From positions 1 to 64,000 of the IMG/VR virus record IMGVR_UViG_3300020047_005985: a DNA stretch of 64,000 bases; one strand, 5' to 3'. This stretch comes from a virus. Lineage: Duplodnaviria; Caudoviricetes. The notes beneath the pieces were generated by a model. The model had not been told where the DNA came from. It saw nothing but the letters and a program-made list of their open reading frames with translations, and searched no databases. This document shows, in pieces, positions 38,998 through 52,984 of this stretch (positions within the stretch are counted from its first letter, which is position 1; every line of letters starts with the position of its first letter). The position numbers and the translations under genes are program-made.

Positions 38998-39068
38998 GGT
39001 GACTAACAAGAATCGAACTTGCACTGTTGGAACCACAAACCAACGTTCTACCGTTAAACTATAGTCAC
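38998..39068 (-). tRNA. tRNA-His(GTG)
   Basis: GTGACTA/TAGTCAC acceptor, C discriminator, loop TT-GTG-GT, TTCGATT T-loop. Confidence 0.85.
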
Positions 39069-39070
39069 AG

Positions 39071-39144
39071 TGGAAGAAGTTAGATTCGAACTAACAACCA
39101 CAGAATGATGGAATCTGCTGCTCTACCAATTGGCATACACTCCC
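39071..39144 (-). pseudogene. Degenerate tRNA-like element (9-nt anticodon loop TTCCATCAT)
   Basis: TTGGTAGAGC D-region, GCAGA/TCTGT stem, GTTAG-TTCGAAT-CTAAC T-arm, weak acceptor stem. Confidence 0.55.
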
Positions 39145-39202
39145 AGTAGTTTCCTGCTACATATACCCTAGTAAACAGGAAACTTTTGTAATTACTCGCA
39201 TT

Positions 39203-39317
39203 CATCTGTTTTTATACTTAAATTCAATGCTCTACCACTGAGCTATACGTCCGTAGTTAAATAAGTAATAGAGGACGTAAGAAGAATTGAACTTCTGACC
39301 TTGAGTTAGAACAGATG
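39203..39317 (-). ncRNA. Circularly permuted tRNA-like RNA (T-arm, loop-closed acceptor stem, D-arm; ends paired in place of the anticodon arm)
   Basis: CATCTGTT..CTCAA-GGTC-AGAAG TTCAATT CTTCT-TACGTCC-[20 nt]-GGACGTA-TA-GCTC AGTGGTA GAGC-A-TTGAA..AACAGATG. Confidence 0.8.
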
Positions 39318-39424
39318 GCTTTCAAAGATGACTAAAACTAAAGCTTGACTCACAAAACTATCTACTAAAAGTAAATACCATCATTTTGTAAGACTAATGC
39401 TAAAGTTATAAAGAGTCAATATTC

Positions 39425-40180
39425 TTAAAATAGAAATTCAAGTACCTTGTTTCCAAGATCAGATTCTTGACTTTCTATTGTATTTGCATTTTCTAAAGCT
39501 GCAATAACAGCTTTATATAAATTATCATATTTGGCTAAAATAATAGCTCGTTGACGAGTTGTGTACTCCCCTGAGTATTCTTGAGCTGTATAGGAACCAA
39601 TATTTACTTGCGTAGATTTTTCACCTACAATTGGCTGACGACTTTTATCTGGATGCGGATCAACTAAAATATAACTTTCCTTAATTGTGGTTTTTGAAAA
39701 ACCTTCATCAATTGGACTTTCATAAATCTCACGTCCCTCATGTTCTCCATTTGTTGATTCTTTCCAGATTACAGATTCTTTTCTGATTGGAAGTTCATGA
39801 ATCAAACTTTTAATTTTACCGTCCAAAATAGACTTGAGTCTTAAAAGTTCCAGGGTAGTGTAAGTTCCCCAATTTTTTCCATCTACAACTAAATCAGAAG
39901 TTACTCCTGTTGCATTTGTTTTTTCAATACTGAATACAATATTGAAATAATCTTGAACATGAGTTTTAAACCAACTTAATTGTTCTCCAACAGTTGAAGC
40001 AACTGCTTCATATCCACGCTTACTAGGTTCATCTGCATACCCATCAATAGGAGTATATGTTTTTTGATAACCTTTAAATAATCCTTGTTTGTTTTTGAAT
40101 TTACTGAACATATCATCCAGCATTAAACTAAATCCTTTTTCCACCTTATCTCTAAGGCCAAGTTGTACGGCTAATTTCAT
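39425..40180 (-). CDS. Uncharacterised helical/coiled-coil protein embedded in the tRNA array
   Basis: 251 aa; FKGYQKTYTP, KTNA, TLELLRL, YSGE, AVIAALENAN motifs recall a widespread uncharacterised phage/bacterial family. Confidence 0.75.
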   Translation of the reverse strand: MKLAVQLGLRDKVEKGFSLMLDDMFSKFKNKQGLFKGYQKTYTPIDGYADEPSKRGYEAVASTVGEQLSWFKTHVQDYFNIVFSIEKTNATGVTSDLVVDGKNWGTYTTLELLRLKSILDGKIKSLIHELPIRKESVIWKESTNGEHEGREIYESPIDEGFSKTTIKESYILVDPHPDKSRQPIVGEKSTQVNIGSYTAQEYSGEYTTRQRAIILAKYDNLYKAVIAALENANTIESQESDLGNKVLEFLF

Positions 40181-40205
40181 TACTAAAGTTTAAATATTAT
40201 TGTAG

Positions 40206-40288
40206 TAGGGAGAGAGGGACTCGAACCCTCAAAGTCTAATGACCAAAGGGGCTTAAGCCCTTCGTGTTTACCATTTCACCACCTCCCC
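40206..40288 (-). tRNA. tRNA-Leu(TAA)
   Basis: GGGGAGG/TCTCCCT, AAGGG-CT TAA GC-CCCTT, long variable arm, TTCGAGT. Confidence 0.9.
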
Positions 40289-40606
40289 ATTATCTGTCTT
40301 TCCAGACTGTCACCATACGAAGTACTCTACCAAATTGATGTCTTTCCAACCTGTAAGACTCTTGCTATATTGACTCTAGCTATACTATATGGGTTTCTGG
40401 AATCGAACCAGTTTTATCTGGATGCGCTATTTTATCATTCTCTTTTAGGTTTCGCCATCTTGCACTTGTACTCAAGTTCCTAAAATCATTTGGGAATGAC
40501 CCAACCACTTCTTAGAACAATGGGATGTTTTCTACCATCTTTCCTTCAGACCTCTCTCAACTGAAGATTGTATAGTTTAGCTATACTCTATATGGATTAT
40601 TTGGTT

Positions 40607-40981
40607 TTAGGCTACTTCTTCAACACCAACACCTTGTAAAGCAAGGGCCTCGGCGAAATTGAAATCAAAATCACTTGCTGTTGCACGAACTGCGGATGTC
40701 AAAGGACTAATTGAAATAATTGGTTCTGTTGGGCGTGCCTCCGTAATTGTCACATTGCAAAGATATTCATTTCCTACTGAAATTCCTTTTTCAAGGTTTT
40801 TCATGTAGCAAATAGCAGAACGTTCAACTATTTCACCTTTATTATTGGTGAATTTCACAGCACCAACAACATACTCCTTACCGTTAACGTTTGTTTGTAC
40901 AGCTTCTCCAAGAGAAGTTACTGTAGCTTTGAATTGACCTTCAAATTGATTGAGTTCTGAATTGAATGTTAGATTGAACAT
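40607..40981 (-). CDS. Hypothetical protein, possible OB-fold ssDNA-binding protein
   Basis: Beta-rich 124 aa with an acidic tail. Confidence 0.5.
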   Translation of the reverse strand: MFNLTFNSELNQFEGQFKATVTSLGEAVQTNVNGKEYVVGAVKFTNNKGEIVERSAICYMKNLEKGISVGNEYLCNVTITEARPTEPIISISPLTSAVRATASDFDFNFAEALALQGVGVEEVA

Positions 40982-41012
40982 TTTAATTGAATTTATTAGT
41001 GAATTTATTAAT

Positions 41013-41351
41013 TTATAGTGTTTTTATGAACTGAGAATATTCTTCCAATTCTTTTATTTTTGTTTCTCGAATCTTTGGTTCATTAAAAGTTTTTAAGTGT
41101 CCTAATGCACATTTCATATCTTGATTTTGAAGCATACAAATTCTACTTACTAACCATCTTTGATTTCTAACTTTTCTTAATTCTTCTACAAACTTACGAC
41201 TACTTTTAGGTAGTTTTTCATTTTGTAAAAGATGAACCAACATTTGAAACTTTTCTTCCTCAAGTCTATGTTGATTTTCCCAATACTCTTTATGAGTATA
41301 AAATTCTTTTAATCCTTCAAAGATTTTAATAATTTCTTCTGTTGTTTGCAT
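41013..41351 (-). CDS. Hypothetical protein
   Basis: ORF. Confidence 0.5.
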   Translation of the reverse strand: MQTTEEIIKIFEGLKEFYTHKEYWENQHRLEEEKFQMLVHLLQNEKLPKSSRKFVEELRKVRNQRWLVSRICMLQNQDMKCALGHLKTFNEPKIRETKIKELEEYSQFIKTL

Positions 41352-42046
41352 TTTTTTTTCTTTCTTCCGTGATAATTTTCTCCTTTAAAACTATTTTCAT
41401 CAAATCCAGCTTGATCTCTTTTTAAGATATCTAATGCTTTTTGTTCTAATAGTTTTTCTTTTTGTTTTAATAACGCATTATTAAAAATATCCAGAGATTT
41501 TTGTTTCTGTAGTTTTTTATTAATACGATTATTTTGTTTAGATTCAGCTTGCTGTTTCCAAACAAGTTTTTTGTATAAAGGATCTTTTCTAGATTTAAAT
41601 TCTAAAACAGATCCATCATAAGATCTTTCATATTCATTTTCATTCCAAGGACGAATGTATGTAACCCATTTAAATTGTTTATGAATCCACTTTACCTTAT
41701 AATCTTTAGAATAAACTTTATACGACGATTTTATATTATATTGTCTTTTAGGTTTACAAATATTACCTTGACTATCAATAGAATAACTAAAGACGTAAAA
41801 ACTTGAATTATTATCAAATTCGTCTAAAAATAAATATTGCTGATATTTTGGAACTTGTTTACAATAATAACGAAAGGCCATATCAAATGATTTTCCAATA
41901 TTATTATATATAATACGTCGAATTCTTTTCCAAGTATTTATTCCTCCTACAGGATGACAATCACCGTAACTGTATGCATACCAAACGTCAGATCTACGCA
42001 TGGGTTCCTTAAAAGGAAGCTGTTCCAAATAATTAAAATTTATCAT
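41309..42046 (-). CDS. Basic hypothetical protein
   Basis: 245-aa Lys-rich ORF. Confidence 0.55.
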   Translation of the reverse strand: MINFNYLEQLPFKEPMRRSDVWYAYSYGDCHPVGGINTWKRIRRIIYNNIGKSFDMAFRYYCKQVPKYQQYLFLDEFDNNSSFYVFSYSIDSQGNICKPKRQYNIKSSYKVYSKDYKVKWIHKQFKWVTYIRPWNENEYERSYDGSVLEFKSRKDPLYKKLVWKQQAESKQNNRINKKLQKQKSLDIFNNALLKQKEKLLEQKALDILKRDQAGFDENSFKGENYHGRKKKKCKQQKKLLKSLKD

Positions 42047-42063
42047 AATAATTTAAATTTGAG

Positions 42064-42150
42064 CGGAGAACTAGAGAATCGAACTCTAACCGTGATTAAG
42101 CTGACTAACTTAGTAGATCAAAGTAACAAATCAATATTTACCTGCTCTCC
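42064..42150 (-). tRNA. Atypical tRNA-Ser-like element (possible ACT anticodon)
   Basis: GGAGAGC/GTTCTCC plus G discriminator; TAGAG-TTCGATT-CTCTA; elongated D-arm; weak anticodon stem around CT-ACT-AA. Confidence 0.5.
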
Positions 42151-42446
42151 AAAACTAGACTCTACCAACCTCCAAATTAATTTTGATAATATAAATCATG
42201 TTAGTTTAAGTTTTTAATATATCGTTATCATACATTGAAACGATAGTCTGTATCACCGTATCTAATGAATCTTTAATTATAACTGAATCAATTAAAGAAA
42301 ACCGAATAGCATACTTACCAGAACAAGTCACTATAAACCCAACAGGAACATTTCTTTCTAGACATGTTTCGGAAAAATGTTGTAACGCAATGGAAAGTTT
42401 ACCAATTGTATTCATTATTTCTTAATTAAAAAAATCTTATAAAATT

Positions 42447-42535
42447 TGGCGGAAGGCAAGGGAGTCCAACCCTTACAACGTTTTACCGTCCTAGCACTTT
42501 TCAAGAGTGTGTACCTCAGTCAACTGGGGCCTTCC
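42447..42535 (-). tRNA. tRNA-Ser(TGA) with encoded CCA
   Basis: GGAAGGC/GCCTTCC-G-CCA, CACT-CT TGA AA-AGTG, long variable arm; atypical D-arm and TTGGACT T-loop. Confidence 0.75.
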
Positions 42536-42760
42536 TATATTTAAAAATTAATCCTGTCCAGTTTCAGTCTGGAATAGAATTAATATAGTTTGATCTTACT
42601 TCAATAGCTTCTTGTTCAGTATTATATCTACCTAAAGATTTGCGCTGCATGATTTATATATTCGTTTCATTCCCTCGCAATAAAATATAAGTTGTTTCTC
42701 TAATTAGAAAGTACAACTTATAAAACTTTACTTATCCCTCGATATCACTGTCAGGATAAA

Positions 42761-43051
42761 TTATACTTCTACTGGAAATAGCTGTCTAAAATACATAGAC
42801 GCTACTTCTAGGCCAGATTCAAATCCTGCCAATTTATTTTTGGCATCTATAATACCTTGTAAATCAGCATTACGAATAGCCTGAGCCAATTCTTGTTGCG
42901 CTTTAGCAATACTTGCTTTTGTAGTAGCAATGCTAATTTCCCACTCTGATTTCTTGGTTTGAACTTTTAATAGCCGCTCCTCGAACAGGAGATCCTCTAT
43001 CGAGGCTGATAGTGAATCCAAATATGATTGGACTGCTTGTGCTTTCGCCAT
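42761..43051 (-). CDS. Small coiled-coil protein
   Basis: Ala-rich heptads; overlaps the upstream gene by 119 nt. Confidence 0.6.
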   Translation of the reverse strand: MAKAQAVQSYLDSLSASIEDLLFEERLLKVQTKKSEWEISIATTKASIAKAQQELAQAIRNADLQGIIDAKNKLAGFESGLEVASMYFRQLFPVEV

Positions 43052-43778
43052 TATTTATTATATTTAAATTGTTAGAATTTGTTTCTTCAGGAGATACTTT
43101 TTTAAGCATATTTCTAGTCCAGTTTACACAATATTCATTATTATTGAAATGTACCATCTTCGATCCATGATTAAACTCATTTTTTGAACAAGACCTTACA
43201 TTAGTAATTTTAAATTTTAATCCTATGTAAGCTATTCCATCAAAGAATCCAGCATCATCATTTTTGGCTATTACCTCAACAGTATCTCCTATCCAAATAT
43301 CATCTGAATCATTTTTTGATATAGATTGTTCTTTTAAATGACTTATATTTTTAACTCCAGCAAAAAAGTGTCCAAAAGAGTAATCTTTTCTTTTACCATG
43401 TGTGAGATCGTTTGTACTTGCTCCGTGTCCTTCAGTAAATAATTCTGAAAAAATTAAAACAGAATTATCATGAATATTAAACCCAATAATTTCAAAAATT
43501 AAATGAGGGAACCTAACATGATTTACTTTATCTCCAATTTTAAATCCACATATTTCTTCTTGAGGATACTTTTCAAAGAATATATCAAATTGTTTTTTAG
43601 TAAGAACTTTTTCCCAAAAAAGATCTCCCTCTATTGTTTGCCACCAATTAAAGCCATCTTTATATTTATCTGAATATATATCATAATCGAAAACATTAGG
43701 AGAATATTTTCTTCCTTGCTCTTCAACTCTTTCTTTTACTTTATTTTGTATTTCTATTGGGAAGTCTGAAAATTTCAT
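42933..43778 (-). CDS. Hypothetical protein
   Basis: 281 aa, GFNW..T.EG..FW motif. Confidence 0.6.
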   Translation of the reverse strand: MKFSDFPIEIQNKVKERVEEQGRKYSPNVFDYDIYSDKYKDGFNWWQTIEGDLFWEKVLTKKQFDIFFEKYPQEEICGFKIGDKVNHVRFPHLIFEIIGFNIHDNSVLIFSELFTEGHGASTNDLTHGKRKDYSFGHFFAGVKNISHLKEQSISKNDSDDIWIGDTVEVIAKNDDAGFFDGIAYIGLKFKITNVRSCSKNEFNHGSKMVHFNNNEYCVNWTRNMLKKVSPEETNSNNLNIINNGESTSSPIIFGFTISLDRGSPVRGAAIKSSNQEIRVGN

Positions 43779-43876
43779 AATATTTTATTTTTAAATCTGA
43801 TAAACAATAGGGACACGGATAACCGTTAATCCATCCTGTATTATTACATGGTTTACACATATTACTTTGATTTTTG

Positions 43877-43948
43877 TGACCCCAAGAGGGATCGAACCTC
43901 TATCTAGGGATTAGAAATCCCTTGCTCTATCCATTGAGCTATAAGGCC
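43877..43948 (-). tRNA. tRNA-Arg(TCT)
   Basis: GGCCTTA/TGGGGTC, AGGGA-TT TCT AA-TCCCT, TTCGATC. Confidence 0.92.
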
Positions 43949-43956
43949 TTGTATTG

Positions 43957-44028
43957 TAGCGAGTGAGAGAATCGAACTCTCATGAATAGGTCGAAAACCT
44001 ACTATCCTAACCATTAGATGAACCCGCC
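43957..44028 (-). tRNA. tRNA-Glu(TTC)
   Basis: GGCGGGT/ACTCGCT, GTAGG-TT TTC GA-CCTAT, TTCGATT. Confidence 0.9.
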
Positions 44029-44107
44029 AAAAATAGCTATCTAAAACTCAATTACTTGAGAAACTTCGCTATTTTAGTTTTTTACTACGCGTTTATGTAG
44101 TTTTAAT

Positions 44108-44231
44108 TTAGTTAGACAGGATTCGATACCTGCACACAACTACTTCACTTCTGATACCATAACAGGACTTATCGTTGGGCATTTTCATTGCTATCATCCT
44201 CTGGTTAGCGTCTATCTTCCGCCACTAACTA
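44108..44231 (-). ncRNA. tRNA-like RNA with expanded anticodon region
   Basis: TAGTTAG/CTAACTA acceptor, TGGCGGAAGATAGACGC D-arm, GCAGG-TATCGAAT-CCTGT T-arm, about 70-nt non-canonical middle. Confidence 0.65.
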
Positions 44232-44239
44232 ATTTAAAG

Positions 44240-44614
44240 TTACTTCAACATTGCTTTTAACTCATCTGCTGACATTGCTTCCAATTCAGCATCTTGTTTT
44301 CGAGCAATTAAATCCATAATTTTTTGATTGTGGATTTTATTTGCAGCAGCAGCTTGAGTTTCTTCTTGTTCTTTGATACGAGTATCAAGAATAGATGTTA
44401 CAATGGCAAGCCGCAATTCGTTTGCTTCTTGTTCTTTGGTCTTACGACCAGCCTTACGACGAGTAGATTTACCATAACCTTCTATGGTTTCAGTTAATTG
44501 CTCTTCATGAGTAACTAACATATCGAGATTAATATCCCACAATTGTTCGCAGGAAATAACCCCTCCTAAATGAAAACGGAGTTTAAGCCGTGAGGCTAAT
44601 TCAAATATATTCAT
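44240..44614 (-). CDS. Conserved phage coiled-coil protein, partner of the 721-aa gene
   Basis: MNIFELASRLKLRF..G.ISCEQLWD..QKIMDLIARKQD..L..MS.DEL. Confidence 0.7.
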   Translation of the reverse strand: MNIFELASRLKLRFHLGGVISCEQLWDINLDMLVTHEEQLTETIEGYGKSTRRKAGRKTKEQEANELRLAIVTSILDTRIKEQEETQAAAANKIHNQKIMDLIARKQDAELEAMSADELKAMLK

Positions 44615-44615
44615 T

Positions 44616-46781
44616 TTAAAATTTTATTTTAATTGTTCGTTTATGACTACCTGATAACTTCAATATTAACTCCTCGGAAATAGTCGAATTAAAACCCAAT
44701 CCACACAACTGTTTAGTTGCTGGTTCAAGTTTTGTAGTTTCACCTAATACTTCCATTACTTTACGATGTTCTAATAAATCAGAATTTAAGAACTCCGTAT
44801 GAAATGAACGTAAAGCAATATCAGATTTACAATTATCAAGCATAAACATGTAATGTTTGTTGCCTGTATTATTATCACCCCAAAAGTTAGGAGATAAGCA
44901 AACCAAGTTGACTTTATGGAATTGATTGGTATCAAGATTCCAAATCTTCGTAGAAGCAGATTGTGATTCTAAAATCTGACAATTATTTAAATCAGGAATA
45001 AATTCTACTTGTCCATTTTTACACAACAGTTTTCCCAATTCAACTGTTCCTTTATGACTAGCCTTAACAAATAAAGATGTGATTTCCCCAAGTATTTCAA
45101 CTTCAGCCGTAAAATCTGTTCGAACAGTCGGTCCACTATAATTATGAACAAACAATCTGTATTCACCATTTGGCATAACAGAAAGATTTGAATATGTCAA
45201 ATTTTCTACACGTTTTTCAGGTGGAAAATGACCATCACATCCTTGAGCATCCAAATCCAACATTCCTGATGATGGTTGCATACTACGTCTATTACTATAG
45301 TAAATTTCATTACCATTAGGCTCTTTACAATGTAAGTCGTAATCAGATGTTGTTTTTGGAAAGTGAATACTTACTCGAATAGGAGCTTCAATTTTACCAC
45401 CTCGATCTTTAACAGCATCTTTAATCATACTTTTACCTGCAAGATTACCATTATAAGTCCAACCAAAATTGTTAGACCATTTAAATGCTTTCTTACTGTC
45501 AGGATTATTTGCCGTATGCAATGCTACTAAGTTACCACTAAATCTATTTTCAAGAAAAGCTTCAATTGAAGCGCATGTTGGAAGAATATCCTTCATAAAC
45601 TTTTCAATAGAAACTTCTTCAATACCATCAAATTGACTACGTTTATGTTGAGTAGATGTAGATGGTGCAACTTTATCAAATACAGATGCTTGTTTAATAG
45701 TATCTGTGCCTACATTTTGGTGAAGAATTTCTGAGATGTTAATATCATCTAATGTAGAGAACCTACGATCAAATGATTCTTCGTATCCATTTTCTTCAAC
45801 AAACTTTTTAGCTTCCGCAATTTGTTTTTGACTAATAGGAGCAGTAGCTTTCATGTAATTAGCAGGATCAACTCGCTTATTCCATGTAAGTACAGCCTTA
45901 TTCAAATCTTCCCCCTGTGTTAATTCTACACAAAGAGTTCCAATTAATTCATTTCTAAATTTAGCAAATGGTAGATTGTTGGATTTAATCCAACACCAAT
46001 TATCCTTCTCTTTAGTTGGTACATCTTTGTATTCAGTTGCAAACTCAATAAACTTTTTAAGCTTATCTAAGTATGAATCACCATTCAACAAACTACCTTG
46101 TTGAATCAAATCACGCACTAACACTAATGTATCCAATGAAATTTCATCAAGACCTCTTTTGAATACATTTTTAGCATCACGATGATTACCTTGAATAGAT
46201 TCAACTGAGTTACTAGAAAAATCTACAAACTTTTTAGGAAGTATAGCATTAAAATGATAAAATGTATATACTTGACCTGGAGTAACTACACCAAATTTGT
46301 CAGCTTCTTCCTGAGTATAAATTTTGTTGCTTTTTTCAAAGCCTAATTTATATTCAGCTTGAGTTTTATTTGTAGATTCATAATTTAATAGTCTATTGAG
46401 AGTATCGTATGATTCTACAAATACATTTTCAATTGGATTATTCTTTAAAAGAAATGCTACATTGTTTGCAGGGCGAGAGTAAATATTATCAGACAGATCT
46501 ACTGTATCAAACATTGTTACAATCTCACCATTGACTAAAGCTACAATGTTACCATAACGATGAATAAAATTCTTGTCATGATTACATGTATGTTCAGTAG
46601 AATTTGGATCTCTGAATACAGGATCAGCTTCTTTAGTGAAACTTGAGATATACTTATCCCAAACTTCATGTCCAGAAATTTTAGATCTGAATAAAACAGG
46701 TTGTTCACACATAAATGCAAACTGCTGTTTAATTGCTTTGTTAAACTCTTGAAATTTCATATTTCGTTGACAGTACTGCAC
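44616..46781 (-). CDS. Large conserved phage protein with C-terminal YfaP/DUF2135-like domain
   Basis: VDPANYMK, FKWSNNFGWTYNGN, DYDLHC.EP.G.EIYY, LDLDA, VENL, GEYRLFVHNY, GLGF. Confidence 0.7.
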   Translation of the reverse strand: MQYCQRNMKFQEFNKAIKQQFAFMCEQPVLFRSKISGHEVWDKYISSFTKEADPVFRDPNSTEHTCNHDKNFIHRYGNIVALVNGEIVTMFDTVDLSDNIYSRPANNVAFLLKNNPIENVFVESYDTLNRLLNYESTNKTQAEYKLGFEKSNKIYTQEEADKFGVVTPGQVYTFYHFNAILPKKFVDFSSNSVESIQGNHRDAKNVFKRGLDEISLDTLVLVRDLIQQGSLLNGDSYLDKLKKFIEFATEYKDVPTKEKDNWCWIKSNNLPFAKFRNELIGTLCVELTQGEDLNKAVLTWNKRVDPANYMKATAPISQKQIAEAKKFVEENGYEESFDRRFSTLDDINISEILHQNVGTDTIKQASVFDKVAPSTSTQHKRSQFDGIEEVSIEKFMKDILPTCASIEAFLENRFSGNLVALHTANNPDSKKAFKWSNNFGWTYNGNLAGKSMIKDAVKDRGGKIEAPIRVSIHFPKTTSDYDLHCKEPNGNEIYYSNRRSMQPSSGMLDLDAQGCDGHFPPEKRVENLTYSNLSVMPNGEYRLFVHNYSGPTVRTDFTAEVEILGEITSLFVKASHKGTVELGKLLCKNGQVEFIPDLNNCQILESQSASTKIWNLDTNQFHKVNLVCLSPNFWGDNNTGNKHYMFMLDNCKSDIALRSFHTEFLNSDLLEHRKVMEVLGETTKLEPATKQLCGLGFNSTISEELILKLSGSHKRTIKIKF

Positions 46782-46852
46782 ACCTTACTGGTTTAGGTTT
46801 AATAATTCTCTATGTGCAACTTGAGAATTTTACTATTGGTATTTTAAAATAG

Positions 46853-46925
46853 TCAGGATGGATTGACTCGAACAACCGACCTCTTGCGTCCAATGCAAGC
46901 TATCTACCAACTGATATACATCCTG
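46853..46925 (-). tRNA. tRNA-Pro(TGG)
   Basis: CAGGATG/CATCCTG, CTTGC-AT TGG AC-GCAAG, TTCGAGT. Confidence 0.9.
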
Positions 46926-47056
46926 GAATTATGGGTATTCCAACCCACGCATTTAACTTGTTTTACATCAAAGATCTTTTGCCTGTAAAGCCTTTAGGAG
47001 CTTTCTGGTGCTAAATGTAAAACCTCGTTGCTTATTTTTTAAAATCTTAAAATTAG

Positions 47057-47207
47057 TAAGGGCAACTGGACTTGAACCAATAACCTCTGTCTAGTTCGGC
47101 AACTCCGGCAGGACTCTAACCTGCAACCTTCAGACCTGAGCCTGACGCTCTAACAATTGAGCTACGGAGTCAATGACAGCGCTCTATCCAAATTGAGCTA
47201 TACCCTT
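47057..47207 (-). tRNA. Outer tRNA whose anticodon loop is interrupted by a second tRNA
   Basis: AAGGGTA/TGCCCTT acceptor, GCTC/GAGC D-stem, CTGTC/GACAG anticodon stem, ATTGG-TTCAAGT-CCAGT T-arm. Confidence 0.8.
47100..47171 (-). tRNA. Inner nested tRNA-like element (6-nt anticodon loop CTCAGG)
   Basis: GACTCCG/CGGAGTT, GCTC/GAGC, TCAGG/TCTGA, GCAGG-TTAGAGT-CCTGC. Confidence 0.75.
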
Positions 47208-47298
47208 GTTTTCTTAATTAACTCCAGAGGATTTCTCCTATCTTGCACCACACATAAAAGTGTACTCGTTACTACTGGATATCTTTAATTAAGATTTG

Positions 47299-47370
47299 TT
47301 GACCCACTAGGATTCGAACCTAGAACCTTCGGCTTAAAAGGCCGATGCTCTACCATTGAGCTATAGGTCA
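47299..47370 (-). tRNA. tRNA-Lys(TTT)
   Basis: TGACCTA/TGGGTCA, TCGGC-CT TTT AA-GCCGA, TTCGAAT. Confidence 0.93.
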
Positions 47371-47608
47371 TTTTAGAATACCACTTAGGAAATCACCCTT
47401 TAGAAAAGACTTAGTGGCACGCCTTTAATTCCTTTACGTAGAATCAACGATTGTTTATTGGAAAAACAATAAAAATCCTCCAGCTTCACATGGCTGGCAC
47501 ACGCGATATTTATTTAACCGTTAAATATCTAAATCCGTTTATCTAGAATAAACTTAAGGAGTTAATCCGTTTAACTATACGACTATTTAACTCATAGTTG
47601 AGGATTTG

Positions 47609-47681
47609 TGGTGAGAGTTGGACTTGAACCAACGACTTTCGGCTTTTCAAACCGATACTCTACCAACTGAGTTACCTCACC
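47609..47681 (-). tRNA. tRNA-Phe(GAA)
   Basis: GGTGAGG/TCTCACC, TCGGT-TT GAA AA-GCCGA, TTCAAGT. Confidence 0.92.
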
Positions 47682-50900: not shown

Positions 50901-52984
50901 TTGTGAAACTTTATAGTTATAATTTATCAATTGCATATCCGTTACAATTTAAAAAATGAAGTGAAAATATCAGATAAAACCAATAGAACCTGTACTAGTA
51001 GGCATTGATCTATTGGACAAACTCCTGATATACAATAAGAGAAATAATTCAGCTCCGTTGCTATAATTATTCTGTTACCGCAGTTTGTTACGGACTTATT
51101 TTTTTGCGTCTTCTTCTGCTTTTCTTTCTGCTCTTTTGCCTAAAATAGGTATAAGAGAAAAAAATGAGAAGAGGAATGCTACAATAAACACCTCTGTGGT
51201 TTCCATTGCTTGTGTAAGACTTCCATTAAAGTCTGTATAATAGCAATATAAAGCTCCACATAATGTGTATATTGATAGCATATAACATGCGACTTTAATC
51301 CAGAACCACATTAGTTAGGATTAATTTCGGTGTTCATAGGCACTCCTGTCCGCTTAGGAGTTTGGTTGCATTTGTCGTAAATAAGTACAACTACCACAAT
51401 CAATAAGATTGCAATAATTGTATTTACAACTATTTTAGTGAATTTGCTCATACATTTTGAAAAAAATAAACATCTGTTTTATCCAGTGATAAATCGACTG
51501 TGTATTAGTATGGAACTACAATGTAGAACTCACAACTATTTACAAGAACAGAAAAGAGATTTAAATAATAGTGTCATTGCAAGTTGTTCTATGAACTCAT
51601 ATACTTACATATATTTACATATTGCACTATTAAACCAATCAATGCTCAATGGTAGTAGAGTGATTGATAATCTATTGTTTATTTTTAATCTTACTGAGTG
51701 CGATTTACCTTTCAGTAAACTACGTTTCTTCCCATTGTTCCGCCTATCACGCGGTGGTTTTTGTGTCTCTAATCAGTAAGATTATTTTTTATTTTTGTTG
51801 TTTTCTAAAATATCCATTAGGGTTTACACCCATCTGAATAAGTCGTTCTTCAATAGTTCCTGTTACTGGAACTTGTTGAAGTATTTCTTCAATGGTACAT
51901 TCTGTTCCAATTTGGTCAAGGATAATATCCTCGTGAGGATATTCGTTATCTATTCTTTCAGGAATAGAAAACATCTTATCTGCACCTATAACGATAGATC
52001 CAGACGGCTCTTCAATTCCGCTAAGTGTTTCCAGCTTAAGGAATTTTGCTCTTCCTCTTGCTGGGATACGCAAGAAATACAATGTGACTGCATCTTCCGA
52101 TGAACATACCAACTGCCAATAAACAGGTAAATCAAAGACTGGTTTGTTTTCTTGAAATTCTATTTGTGGTAGAATTTCGGTCAATCTTAACATTTCTTCA
52201 TGGCTTACAAGCCGAAGAAAATTACCATTTGGGTTTGCAAACCAATATTGCTGTAATGTAGTTACAAGTAAATTTCCTCCTGCTGTTAGATAGAACTTAG
52301 CTTTGTCCAATAGATATGCAAGATGCATTCTATTGAATGCTTCCCAGGTTTCACATTCTCTGGATGGATTTTTTTGAATAGTTCCATCAGTATTTACAGC
52401 GTAACATGTATATGTTACATGAGTGTCGGTTGTTTCTTGAACGTAAGCATGGAGAATTTCATCTCCGAATTTTAGCTTGTACATAATACTTTTTATTTTT
52501 TGAATAATTGCCTACTCTTTTGAAGGATTTTTGGCATACTCCTTATAAACCCTCTGCACTCTGTTATAATCATCAATGATTTCATTCCTATCAATTAAGA
52601 TGGTGTATTAATTTCAACTATAGATTATAACAGCTTACCAGGGACTAGTGGGAATTAGAGTTAATAGGCAAAACACCCAATAAGAGTGACAAATCCTATT
52701 TACCTGCACTTCCGCAAGTGGAGATATTTGTTGCGGTATTTTTAAACATCAGATCAACGAGTATTATTGTCTCTATTGATCTTAAACTGGTGTTATATCC
52801 TTATACAAACCCAACCACAACTTGAGATGTAATCAATATTGTGTTGAATACAGAAAGCTCTACCTTCATACCATTTAAGGCAGATTTCGACAATACGACC
52901 TGATTCAGATCTTATTACTTTGTCAATAATCTCTGCTGGAATAGTAATCCCATTGAGATCATAGTCTTTATTATAGTCTTCCAT
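47965..52984 (-). other. Region of small early-type hypothetical CDSs (47965-48276 2xTM, 48283-48516, 48770-49027, 49072-49542, 49547-49771, 50091-50534, 50544-50936 Zn ribbon, 51096-51311 2xTM, 51789-52484, 52793-52984) separated by long hairpin-rich spacers
   Basis: Co-oriented ORFs with AT-rich leaders. Confidence 0.5.

Follow-up and report, generated by a model that had tools for sequence, protein, structure and literature searches.

The genome of a tailed virus (Caudoviricetes; IMG/VR record IMGVR_UViG_3300020047_005985) encodes, on the minus strand and directly behind the gene for a 251-amino-acid (aa) protein of the DUF7873 family, a composite RNA of ~350 nucleotides (nt) that includes a circularly permuted transfer RNA (tRNA)-like domain. 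The stretch analysed here, hereinafter the window, covers positions 1 to 64,000 of the virus record, which is complete at 108,241 bp and has direct terminal repeats. The DUF7873 gene occupies positions 39425-40180, and the RNA, which according to the leader alignment begins a few nt past the stop codon, spans positions 39424 to 39071 and consists of four conserved domains: a leader with 6-nt repeats, the permuted domain (module 1), a hairpin with an invariant or nearly invariant loop, and a second tRNA-like domain of normal order (module 2). The pair is not specific to phages and is found also, on its own, in Bacteroidota chromosomes. As judged by sequence comparison, module 1 is closest, among known families, to YrlA, the Y RNA that Ro60 binds, and the composite RNA as a whole seems to be a bacterial Y RNA of the YrlA kind, albeit a divergent one. 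The explanation that we favour, with modest confidence, is that it forms a Y-RNA-like particle in which DUF7873 is the dedicated partner, possibly in cooperation with Ro60.

A circularly permuted tRNA-like fold

Module 1 (39203-39323, minus strand) starts with GAAAGC and then consists, from 5' to 3', of the first strand of an outer stem, the 3' strand of the 'anticodon' stem, the T arm, the 3' strand of the acceptor, a capping loop, the 5' strand of the acceptor, the D arm, the 5' strand of the 'anticodon' stem, a UUUAAG internal loop and the second strand of the outer stem. The outer stem has 8 bp (CATCTGTT, 39317-39310, and AACAGATG, 39210-39203), and the 'anticodon' stem (CTCAA, 39305-39301, and TTGAA, 39227-39223) has 4 bp and an A-C mismatch. 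The T arm is AGAAG-TTCAATT-CTTCT (39296-39280) and the D arm is GCTC-AGTGGTA-GAGC (39243-39229); the acceptor (TACGTCC, 39279-39273, and GGACGTA, 39252-39246) forms a perfect helix of 7 bp, and the 20-nt loop at its end (39272-39253) starts with UCUA. Every element of the two tRNA halves listed in the initial annotation of this locus is thus found on the minus strand at the position given there, and the spacing of about 110 nt from the end of the upstream gene is borne out as well, the outer stem beginning 107 nt after the last base (39425) of the 251-aa open reading frame. What that annotation had taken for an RNA by itself, however, is one of the four conserved domains of the RNA at 39424-39071.

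Neither ARAGORN nor Rfam at the gathering threshold calls module 1. Because the fold energy of the single window sequence is unexceptional (z = -1.0), the reality of the fold was judged from conservation. Among 23 homologous elements, 95.5% of the cells pair, double changes are present in 27 of the 29 pairs, and the covariation score is 0.82, compared to ~0.1 for slid controls, in an alignment that was fitted to the structure and so somewhat favours this result. All five helices covary, and the circularly permuted tRNA-like fold is confirmed as real.

The residues that flank the 'anticodon' stem vary in both length and sequence, and joining them does not give a conserved anticodon loop of 7 nt. 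A reading of the UUUAAG loop as an anticodon (of a Leu tRNA or an ochre suppressor) was considered and rejected, the loop not being conserved as a 7-nt anticodon loop.

The acceptor-capping loop and signs of tRNA-type processing

The loop that caps the acceptor begins with N-C-N-A in all 39 elements (39/39), mostly as UCCA, UCUA or UCAA; the variants ACCA and GCCA belong to the Klebsiella and the Vibrio phage, respectively. Its length ranges from 17 to ~330 nt, and beyond the first residues it is unconstrained, repeat-rich inserts included. Inserts of ~330 and ~290 nt are present at L108:6930-7270 and L012:3490-3790, respectively; the former contains tandem GGAATTAG repeats along with inverted copies and resembles a small mobile or repeat element. 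The same tail is present in the genuine tRNA genes of the phage arrays: C74 follows the discriminator in 58 of the 59 genes counted, which comprise the tRNA genes of the window (38998-47681) and those of loci L002, L003, L007, L008, L103 and L117. In these array tRNAs, C74 is mostly followed by A or U and then by A, yielding CAA or CUA and not CCA, a 3'-trailer signature that these arrays have in common.

[quoted passage not shown] Because module 1 combines the N-C-N-A tail, an unconstrained and apparently dispensable loop, and a 7-bp acceptor like that of the M. smegmatis YrlA, we infer that RNase P cleavage and maturation of a CCA end are likely to give a two-piece product.

Leader, hairpin and the second tRNA-like domain

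The leader (39324-39419, minus strand) is conserved among 34 aligned loci. Between the strands of its helix P1 (TTGACTC, 39419-39413, and GAGTCAA, 39351-39345) lie hexamer tract A (39405-39388), a hairpin that varies and a motif of the UUAGUGUUG type (39359-39353); the second tract, hexamer tract B (39344-39324), comes after P1. In an anchored comparison, the two strands of P1 vary in step between lineages, and the case for this helix is made by its consistent position and the compensatory changes, per-sequence shuffles being not significant; RNAalifold, applied to a MAFFT alignment of the leader in which the 5' strand of P1 was out of register, predicted no pairs. The tracts show a 6-nt periodicity, with a lag-6 identity of 0.51 as opposed to 0.27 in shuffles (z = 20). 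The sequence of the hexamer depends on the lineage (NYUUAG in the window; GACUGA, UUAUCG, GCNUCA or UCAAAU elsewhere) and shifts along with the lineage of the DUF7873 protein. No promoter or terminator consensus was found between the DUF7873 gene and the RNA, and the two are probably co-transcribed.

Module 1 is followed by a conserved linker of the AAUGnGAGUAAnnACAAAA type (39184-39202, minus strand), which is present in the window and its closer relatives (e.g., L101, L008, L002, L003, L007 and L001), and then by the conserved hairpin (39149-39183, minus strand; stem GTTTCCTG and CAGGAAAC, extending to 11 bp in the window). This hairpin was found in 32 of the 35 loci; its stems, of 8-14 bp, differ in sequence in all 32 and are nonetheless fully paired, and its loop, A-G-G-A-n-A-U, is invariant or nearly so across the family, with a variant, AGGnUAU, in the window. 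Module 2 (39071-39144, minus strand) scores 34.7 bits with the Rfam tRNA model and is not called by ARAGORN; it has a 9-nt loop in the place of the anticodon loop and ends in A-C-U. Most of the relatives likewise contain, 50-70 nt past module 1, a tRNA-like element of normal order; its tail has the form A-C-N, and its anticodon arm is abnormal or enlarged, in many cases by an insertion of 20-60 nt. A tRNA-His gene adjoins the composite unit and begins 2 nt beyond module 2.

In three loci of a distant DUF7873 subfamily (L050, L074 and L075), an additional permuted tRNA-like module lies between the gene and the module detected by the model, so that these RNAs carry two permuted heads in tandem.

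Linkage to the DUF7873 gene and distribution

Loci were retrieved using the protein as the anchor (28 from IMG/VR, several metagenome contigs, 20 from bacterial genomes and three from GenBank phages) and searched with a covariance model made from module 1 of the window alone, complemented by our own descriptor scan and inspection for the cases with long loops or weak D arms. Across 223 kb of related loci, the model yielded matches at E<0.01 solely downstream of the DUF7873 gene and on the same strand. Downstream of the gene and on its strand, the RNA was found in 28 of the 28 evaluable viral loci from IMG/VR and in 15 of the 16 evaluable bacterial loci. The same arrangement holds for Klebsiella jumbo phage FBKp24 and for Vibrio phage D497. 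The coupling to the 251-aa gene that was proposed in the initial annotation for the single locus therefore extends to its homologs, and so does the T arm-acceptor-D arm order, as indicated by both the covariance model and the covariation of the five helices.

The linkage was recovered also in the opposite direction: a pattern scan of IMG/VR for the RNA only produced 22 strong matches, with DUF7873 directly upstream in 18 of the 20 that were evaluable. These matches include a distant, GC-richer subfamily whose proteins score 215-243 bits with the Pfam DUF7873 model. In the Bacteroidota chromosomes, the DUF7873-RNA pair is located between unrelated housekeeping genes, with no tRNA array.

Two side observations concern individual loci. 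In one Bacteroidota chromosome, the DUF7873 cassette lies beside one or two DUF4365 genes (L105/L106:2069-2536 and L106:1102-1566). In Klebsiella phage vB_KpM_FBKp24, the region L098:3468-3552 (NC_061421.1, 46041-46120) is annotated in GenBank as 'tRNA-Sup-TTA' and called as tRNA-Stop by ARAGORN; this is probably a mis-annotation because the called tRNA uses a T arm and an acceptor 3' strand that belong to the permuted module (L098:3502-3638).

The DUF7873 protein

The upstream gene was described in the initial annotation as encoding a coiled-coil protein; the open reading frame itself stands, whereas a mere coiled coil does not, since the product matches Pfam DUF7873 (PF25283) over residues 3-251 with 116.5 bits, the curated cut-off being 27 bits. 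More than 210 close homologs and 1688 cluster representatives were collected, all of ~250 aa; no longer, fused forms were found among them, which is weak evidence. The mean column identity is 64%. The AlphaFold model (predicted local distance difference test score, pLDDT, 87) suggests a helical bundle with long beta hairpins. A Foldseek search of PDB and BFVD with this model returned nothing at E<=0.001, and the best VIA-align Z scores were 6.9, to helical bundles, in a wide search and 5.1 in the re-ranked Foldseek list. A likeness to Cas7-type proteins, seen in weak Foldseek rows, was not upheld by VIA-align and was rejected. A sequence profile search of PDB was empty, an ESM Atlas search retrieved the family itself only, and PHROG, PADLOC and NCBIfam gave no match to DUF7873. 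Our literature search found no paper on DUF7873 and no published account of the DUF7873-RNA pair.

Relation to YrlA and Ro60

Particles of Ro60 and Y RNAs police damaged RNA. YrlA is a tRNA-mimicking Y RNA to which the Ro60/Rsr proteins of bacteria and mycobacteriophage bind (Chen et al. 2014, PMC4201824), and in the literature that we searched it is described solely beside Ro60. The features of YrlA-type topology to which the initial annotation drew attention, namely, a T arm, an acceptor-like hairpin, a D arm and a closing distal helix, are all present in module 1. In a local Rfam scan, the whole YrlA model (RF02553) aligns to module 1, albeit not as a strong match (33.7 bits against a gathering score of 69); full-length alignments were obtained also for 7 relatives, with the window and the relatives scoring 28-43 bits. 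Since bona fide YrlA RNAs encoded beside Ro60 in Cytophagales reach only 47-50 bits, a threshold of 69 bits is demanding in this phylum. Those positions of the Rfam model that form the Ro-binding helix have no match in the window. The Ro60-binding motif, on the 5' strand of the Ro60-binding helix, is GNCGAAN(0-1)G (PMC4201824). A G-N-Y-G-A-A-A-G motif located just 5' of the outer stem of module 1 resembles it, and is exact only in L003, L111 and L023.

The absence of Ro60 from the window, pointed out previously, extends to the whole 108-kb phage, in which Pfam, a phage Ro60 query and tblastn detected none. Ro60 is clearly encoded by 4 of the 16 phage records that contain the module (G205, G206, G208 and G212); among the complete records with the module, 3 of 11 have Ro60 and 8 of 11 have none. 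In two sister phages of ~100 kb (G206 and G208), Ro60 is located 5-7 kb upstream of DUF7873, with no YrlA beside it. The divergent Ro60 homologs of the sister phages (L136:1540-3231 and L137:1685-3382; 563-565 aa) combine TROVE and vWA_Ro60 domains; a Band_7/SPFH gene is encoded near one of them (L137:4315-5076), and a sub-threshold tmRNA-like match of 29 bits is present near the other (L136:4463-4803).

Of 201 Cytophagales genomes, taken as one sample, 36 contain DUF7873 and 51 contain TROVE; TROVE was found in 24 of the 36 genomes with DUF7873 compared to 27 of the 165 without it, with an odds ratio of 10.2 (p = 5.5e-9) that is uncorrected for shared ancestry. In bacteria that have both, Ro60 is encoded away from DUF7873 and has its own canonical YrlA, with a 6-bp acceptor and a tetraloop, directly after the Ro60 gene; the example used for comparison, L130, comes from the same genome as L118. 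Wherever the position was checked, Ro60 was more than 5 kb from DUF7873. The DUF7873-RNA module is separable from Ro60 but may not be independent of it.

Other features of the locus

A blastn search of the locus against GenBank phages produced no match, and neither RtcB nor a CCA-adding enzyme was found in the phage genome. Within the array, a tRNA with an undetermined anticodon (2-nt 'ca' according to ARAGORN) is located at 47098-47171 (minus strand) and scores 57.6 bits with the Rfam tRNA model. A 721-aa protein encoded between the tRNA clusters (44616-46781, minus strand) belongs to PHROG 1735 (672 bits, unknown function) and has no Pfam match; it was considered as a divergent Ro60 and rejected, not being a Ro60 homolog. 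Outside the array, the Rfam DUF805b RNA motif was detected at 52509-52544 (minus strand; 42.4 bits, with a gathering score of 35.6).

A putative particle of DUF7873 and a tRNA-mimic RNA

Taken together, these observations are compatible with a ribonucleoprotein in which the RNA would mimic an L-shaped tRNA, with a helix between distant parts of the RNA taking the place of the anticodon arm. DUF7873 would bind the parts that are not tRNA-like, the likeliest sites being the 6-nt tracts of the leader and, in module 1, a UUAAG tract that resembles them, and each hexamer would hold one protomer. Both tRNA-like heads would be handled by tRNA enzymes: RNase P would cut at the 5' side of the acceptor strand, and the N-C-N-A tail would be trimmed and completed to CCA, such that the dispensable capping loop is removed and a base-paired two-piece particle results. 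By analogy with Ro60-YrlA, this particle could dock to tRNA-binding or RNA-decay and repair machinery, and it may act together with Ro60 where Ro60 is available. Its place in the tRNA arrays of phages might serve to have the cassette expressed and matured alongside the phage tRNAs during infection.

In its most specific form, the proposal is that DUF7873 assembles in six-nucleotide register on the two-headed RNA, and that the RNase P cut and CCA addition yield an undescribed ribonucleoprotein that presents its heads to the tRNA or translation machinery; in bacteria of several phyla and in many large phages, it would serve, with Ro60 or without it, for repair, for protection or as a decoy against tRNA-directed attack in infection and stress. 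We put this forward tentatively, as a scenario that is rather doubtful in its entirety.

Several findings weigh against such a particle. No RNA-binding fold was recognisable in DUF7873 by the structure and family searches, and the periodic repeats could bind a host factor rather than DUF7873. Two strong orphan modules (L040 and L090) are located in phage tRNA arrays without DUF7873 nearby and, conversely, the Lak megaphage and one Cytophagales locus have the DUF7873 gene without an adjacent RNA. Many elements pair N-C-C-A with the far end of the capping loop, which could mean a closed, extended hairpin. The uncorrected ancestry in the odds ratio given above belongs here, too.

An RNA with the YrlA topology and a full-length, even if weak, alignment to the Rfam YrlA model might instead depend on Ro60, being bound by the Ro60 of the host in the present phage, with DUF7873 as an accessory or an unrelated neighbour. 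The GNYGAAAG-like motif beside the outer stem, with its three exact instances, would fit such a role, as would the excess of TROVE in DUF7873-containing Cytophagales and the Ro60 genes of the four phages, especially the two without an adjacent YrlA. The phage studied here has no Ro60, however, nor do most of the complete phage records with the module and 12 of the 36 bacterial genomes with DUF7873; where bacteria have Ro60, it comes with its own canonical YrlA, remote from DUF7873; and the unmatched Ro-binding helix positions argue in the same direction, so that we consider this explanation unlikely. Quite improbable, in our assessment, is a purely cis-acting 3' untranslated region, in which the tRNA-like folds would be RNase P/RNase Z processing or stability signals that end the DUF7873 messenger RNA and separate it from the downstream tRNAs, and the leader repeats would mediate autoregulation. 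The start of the RNA within a few nt of the stop codon, the missing promoter and terminator consensus, and the embedding in tRNA arrays whose processing involves the same enzymes are all compatible with this possibility. Four separately conserved domains with invariant loops, spread over ~350 nt, nevertheless go far beyond what end processing needs, and permuted order is not needed for it at all; furthermore, the orphan modules exist without the gene, and the pair is retained in bacterial chromosomes that have no tRNA array at the site.

The autonomous two-part organisation, the short periodic repeats in the RNA, and the patchy presence in Cytophagales (36 of 201 genomes), in phages as well as in chromosomes, between unrelated genes, are reminiscent of a type III-like toxin-antitoxin or a defence/counter-defence pair, in which the structured repeat RNA would neutralise the adjacent protein. 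The repeat units of known type III antitoxins are ~36 nt long, however, rather than 6 nt; the RNA is encoded downstream of the protein gene, not upstream; no PADLOC or NCBIfam model matched; and DUF7873 is strongly conserved, unlike fast-evolving conflict genes, which makes this reading very improbable. Still less credible is a minimal two-piece RNA akin to transfer-messenger RNA (tmRNA), or one otherwise aminoacylated, that enters the ribosome. The permuted order is that of two-piece tmRNA genes, the tail is CCA-like, and, speculatively, the conserved AAGGA-containing hairpin loop could pair with the 3' end of 16S ribosomal RNA. Against this, ARAGORN, which detects permuted tmRNAs, found none, no tmRNA family was among the matches to the element in a local scan with all Rfam families at E up to 10, and the acceptor has A3-U70 in place of G3-U70, in agreement with the initial annotation, where the G3-U70 pair was said to be missing; neither a tag reading frame nor pseudoknots were seen. 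The canonical D and T loops and the 7-bp acceptor stem would also be expected of a genuine permuted tRNA gene that matures via a circular intermediate, or of a normal tRNA rearranged in the genome or in the assembly. That is the least probable of all the explanations considered: no 7-nt anticodon loop can be recovered, the ends pair as an 8-bp helix with no bulge-helix-bulge, and an assembly artefact is excluded because the same permuted order recurs, with compensatory changes, in dozens of independent assemblies. A Y-RNA-like particle dedicated to DUF7873 is thus the explanation that we retain.

Y RNAs are known solely as partners of Ro60; if a large tRNA-mimic RNA proved to be tied to DUF7873, a protein of unknown fold, this class would be widened. 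The protein family is substantial, with ~1700 sequence clusters, and is represented in phages from 78 kb to megaphage size as well as in Bacteroidota chromosomes. Such a pair would provide a second handle on the question of why cells and viruses make tRNA look-alikes, and would account for the recurrent 'odd tRNAs' of phage tRNA arrays, including the probably mis-annotated suppressor tRNA of a cultured Klebsiella phage. The periodic hexamer tracts are a concrete, testable candidate for a binding code, and Xanthocytophaga flavus NT2B1, Klebsiella phage FBKp24 and the Vibrio D4xx phages offer tractable experimental systems.

Comparison with known systems

Among the known systems, YrlA shares with module 1 the permuted T arm-acceptor-D arm order, the canonical D-loop and T-loop residues, and the replacement of the anticodon arm by a helix that closes the domain; the module RNA also co-occurs statistically with Ro60. 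The two differ in the acceptor, which in YrlA consists of 6 bp and a tetraloop and in module 1 of 7 bp, the N-C-N-A tail and a loop of 17-330 nt. Furthermore, unlike YrlA, module 1 is part of a larger RNA that also contains the leader with its hexamer repeats, the hairpin with its invariant loop and another tRNA-like head, and this RNA is linked to DUF7873 and does not adjoin Ro60; a Ro-binding helix was not clearly recognised in it. The YrlA of M. smegmatis has the same 7-bp acceptor, and the tRNA-type tail of module 1 suggests, by analogy, the same two-piece fate; the mycobacterial RNA, however, is encoded beside Rsr and bound by it, unlike the module RNA, for which processing is predicted from sequence features.

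Two-piece tmRNA genes resemble module 1 in that the 3' tRNA half comes first, followed by an intervening segment that is dispensable and variable in length, and then by the 5' half. They differ in the tag reading frame, the G3-U70 pair and the pseudoknots, none of which was seen here, and the partner gene of module 1 is not smpB. In Cyanidioschyzon merolae and some archaea, circularly permuted tRNA genes rebuild a real anticodon loop via a bulge-helix-bulge motif and a circular intermediate. In these genes, too, the 3' half is first and the two acceptor strands are joined by an intervening sequence, whereas module 1 has no anticodon loop and its hosts are bacteria.

For the leader, the closest parallel is with the targets of TRAP and HutP, oligomeric proteins that recognise UAG or GAG triplets spaced at regular intervals. 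The N-Y-U-U-A-G repeats of the window lineage are, by analogy, similarly short and arranged with a fixed period of 5-7 nt; in contrast to the targets of TRAP and HutP, the leader repeats vary by lineage, and DUF7873, their putative binding partner, shows no similarity to either protein.

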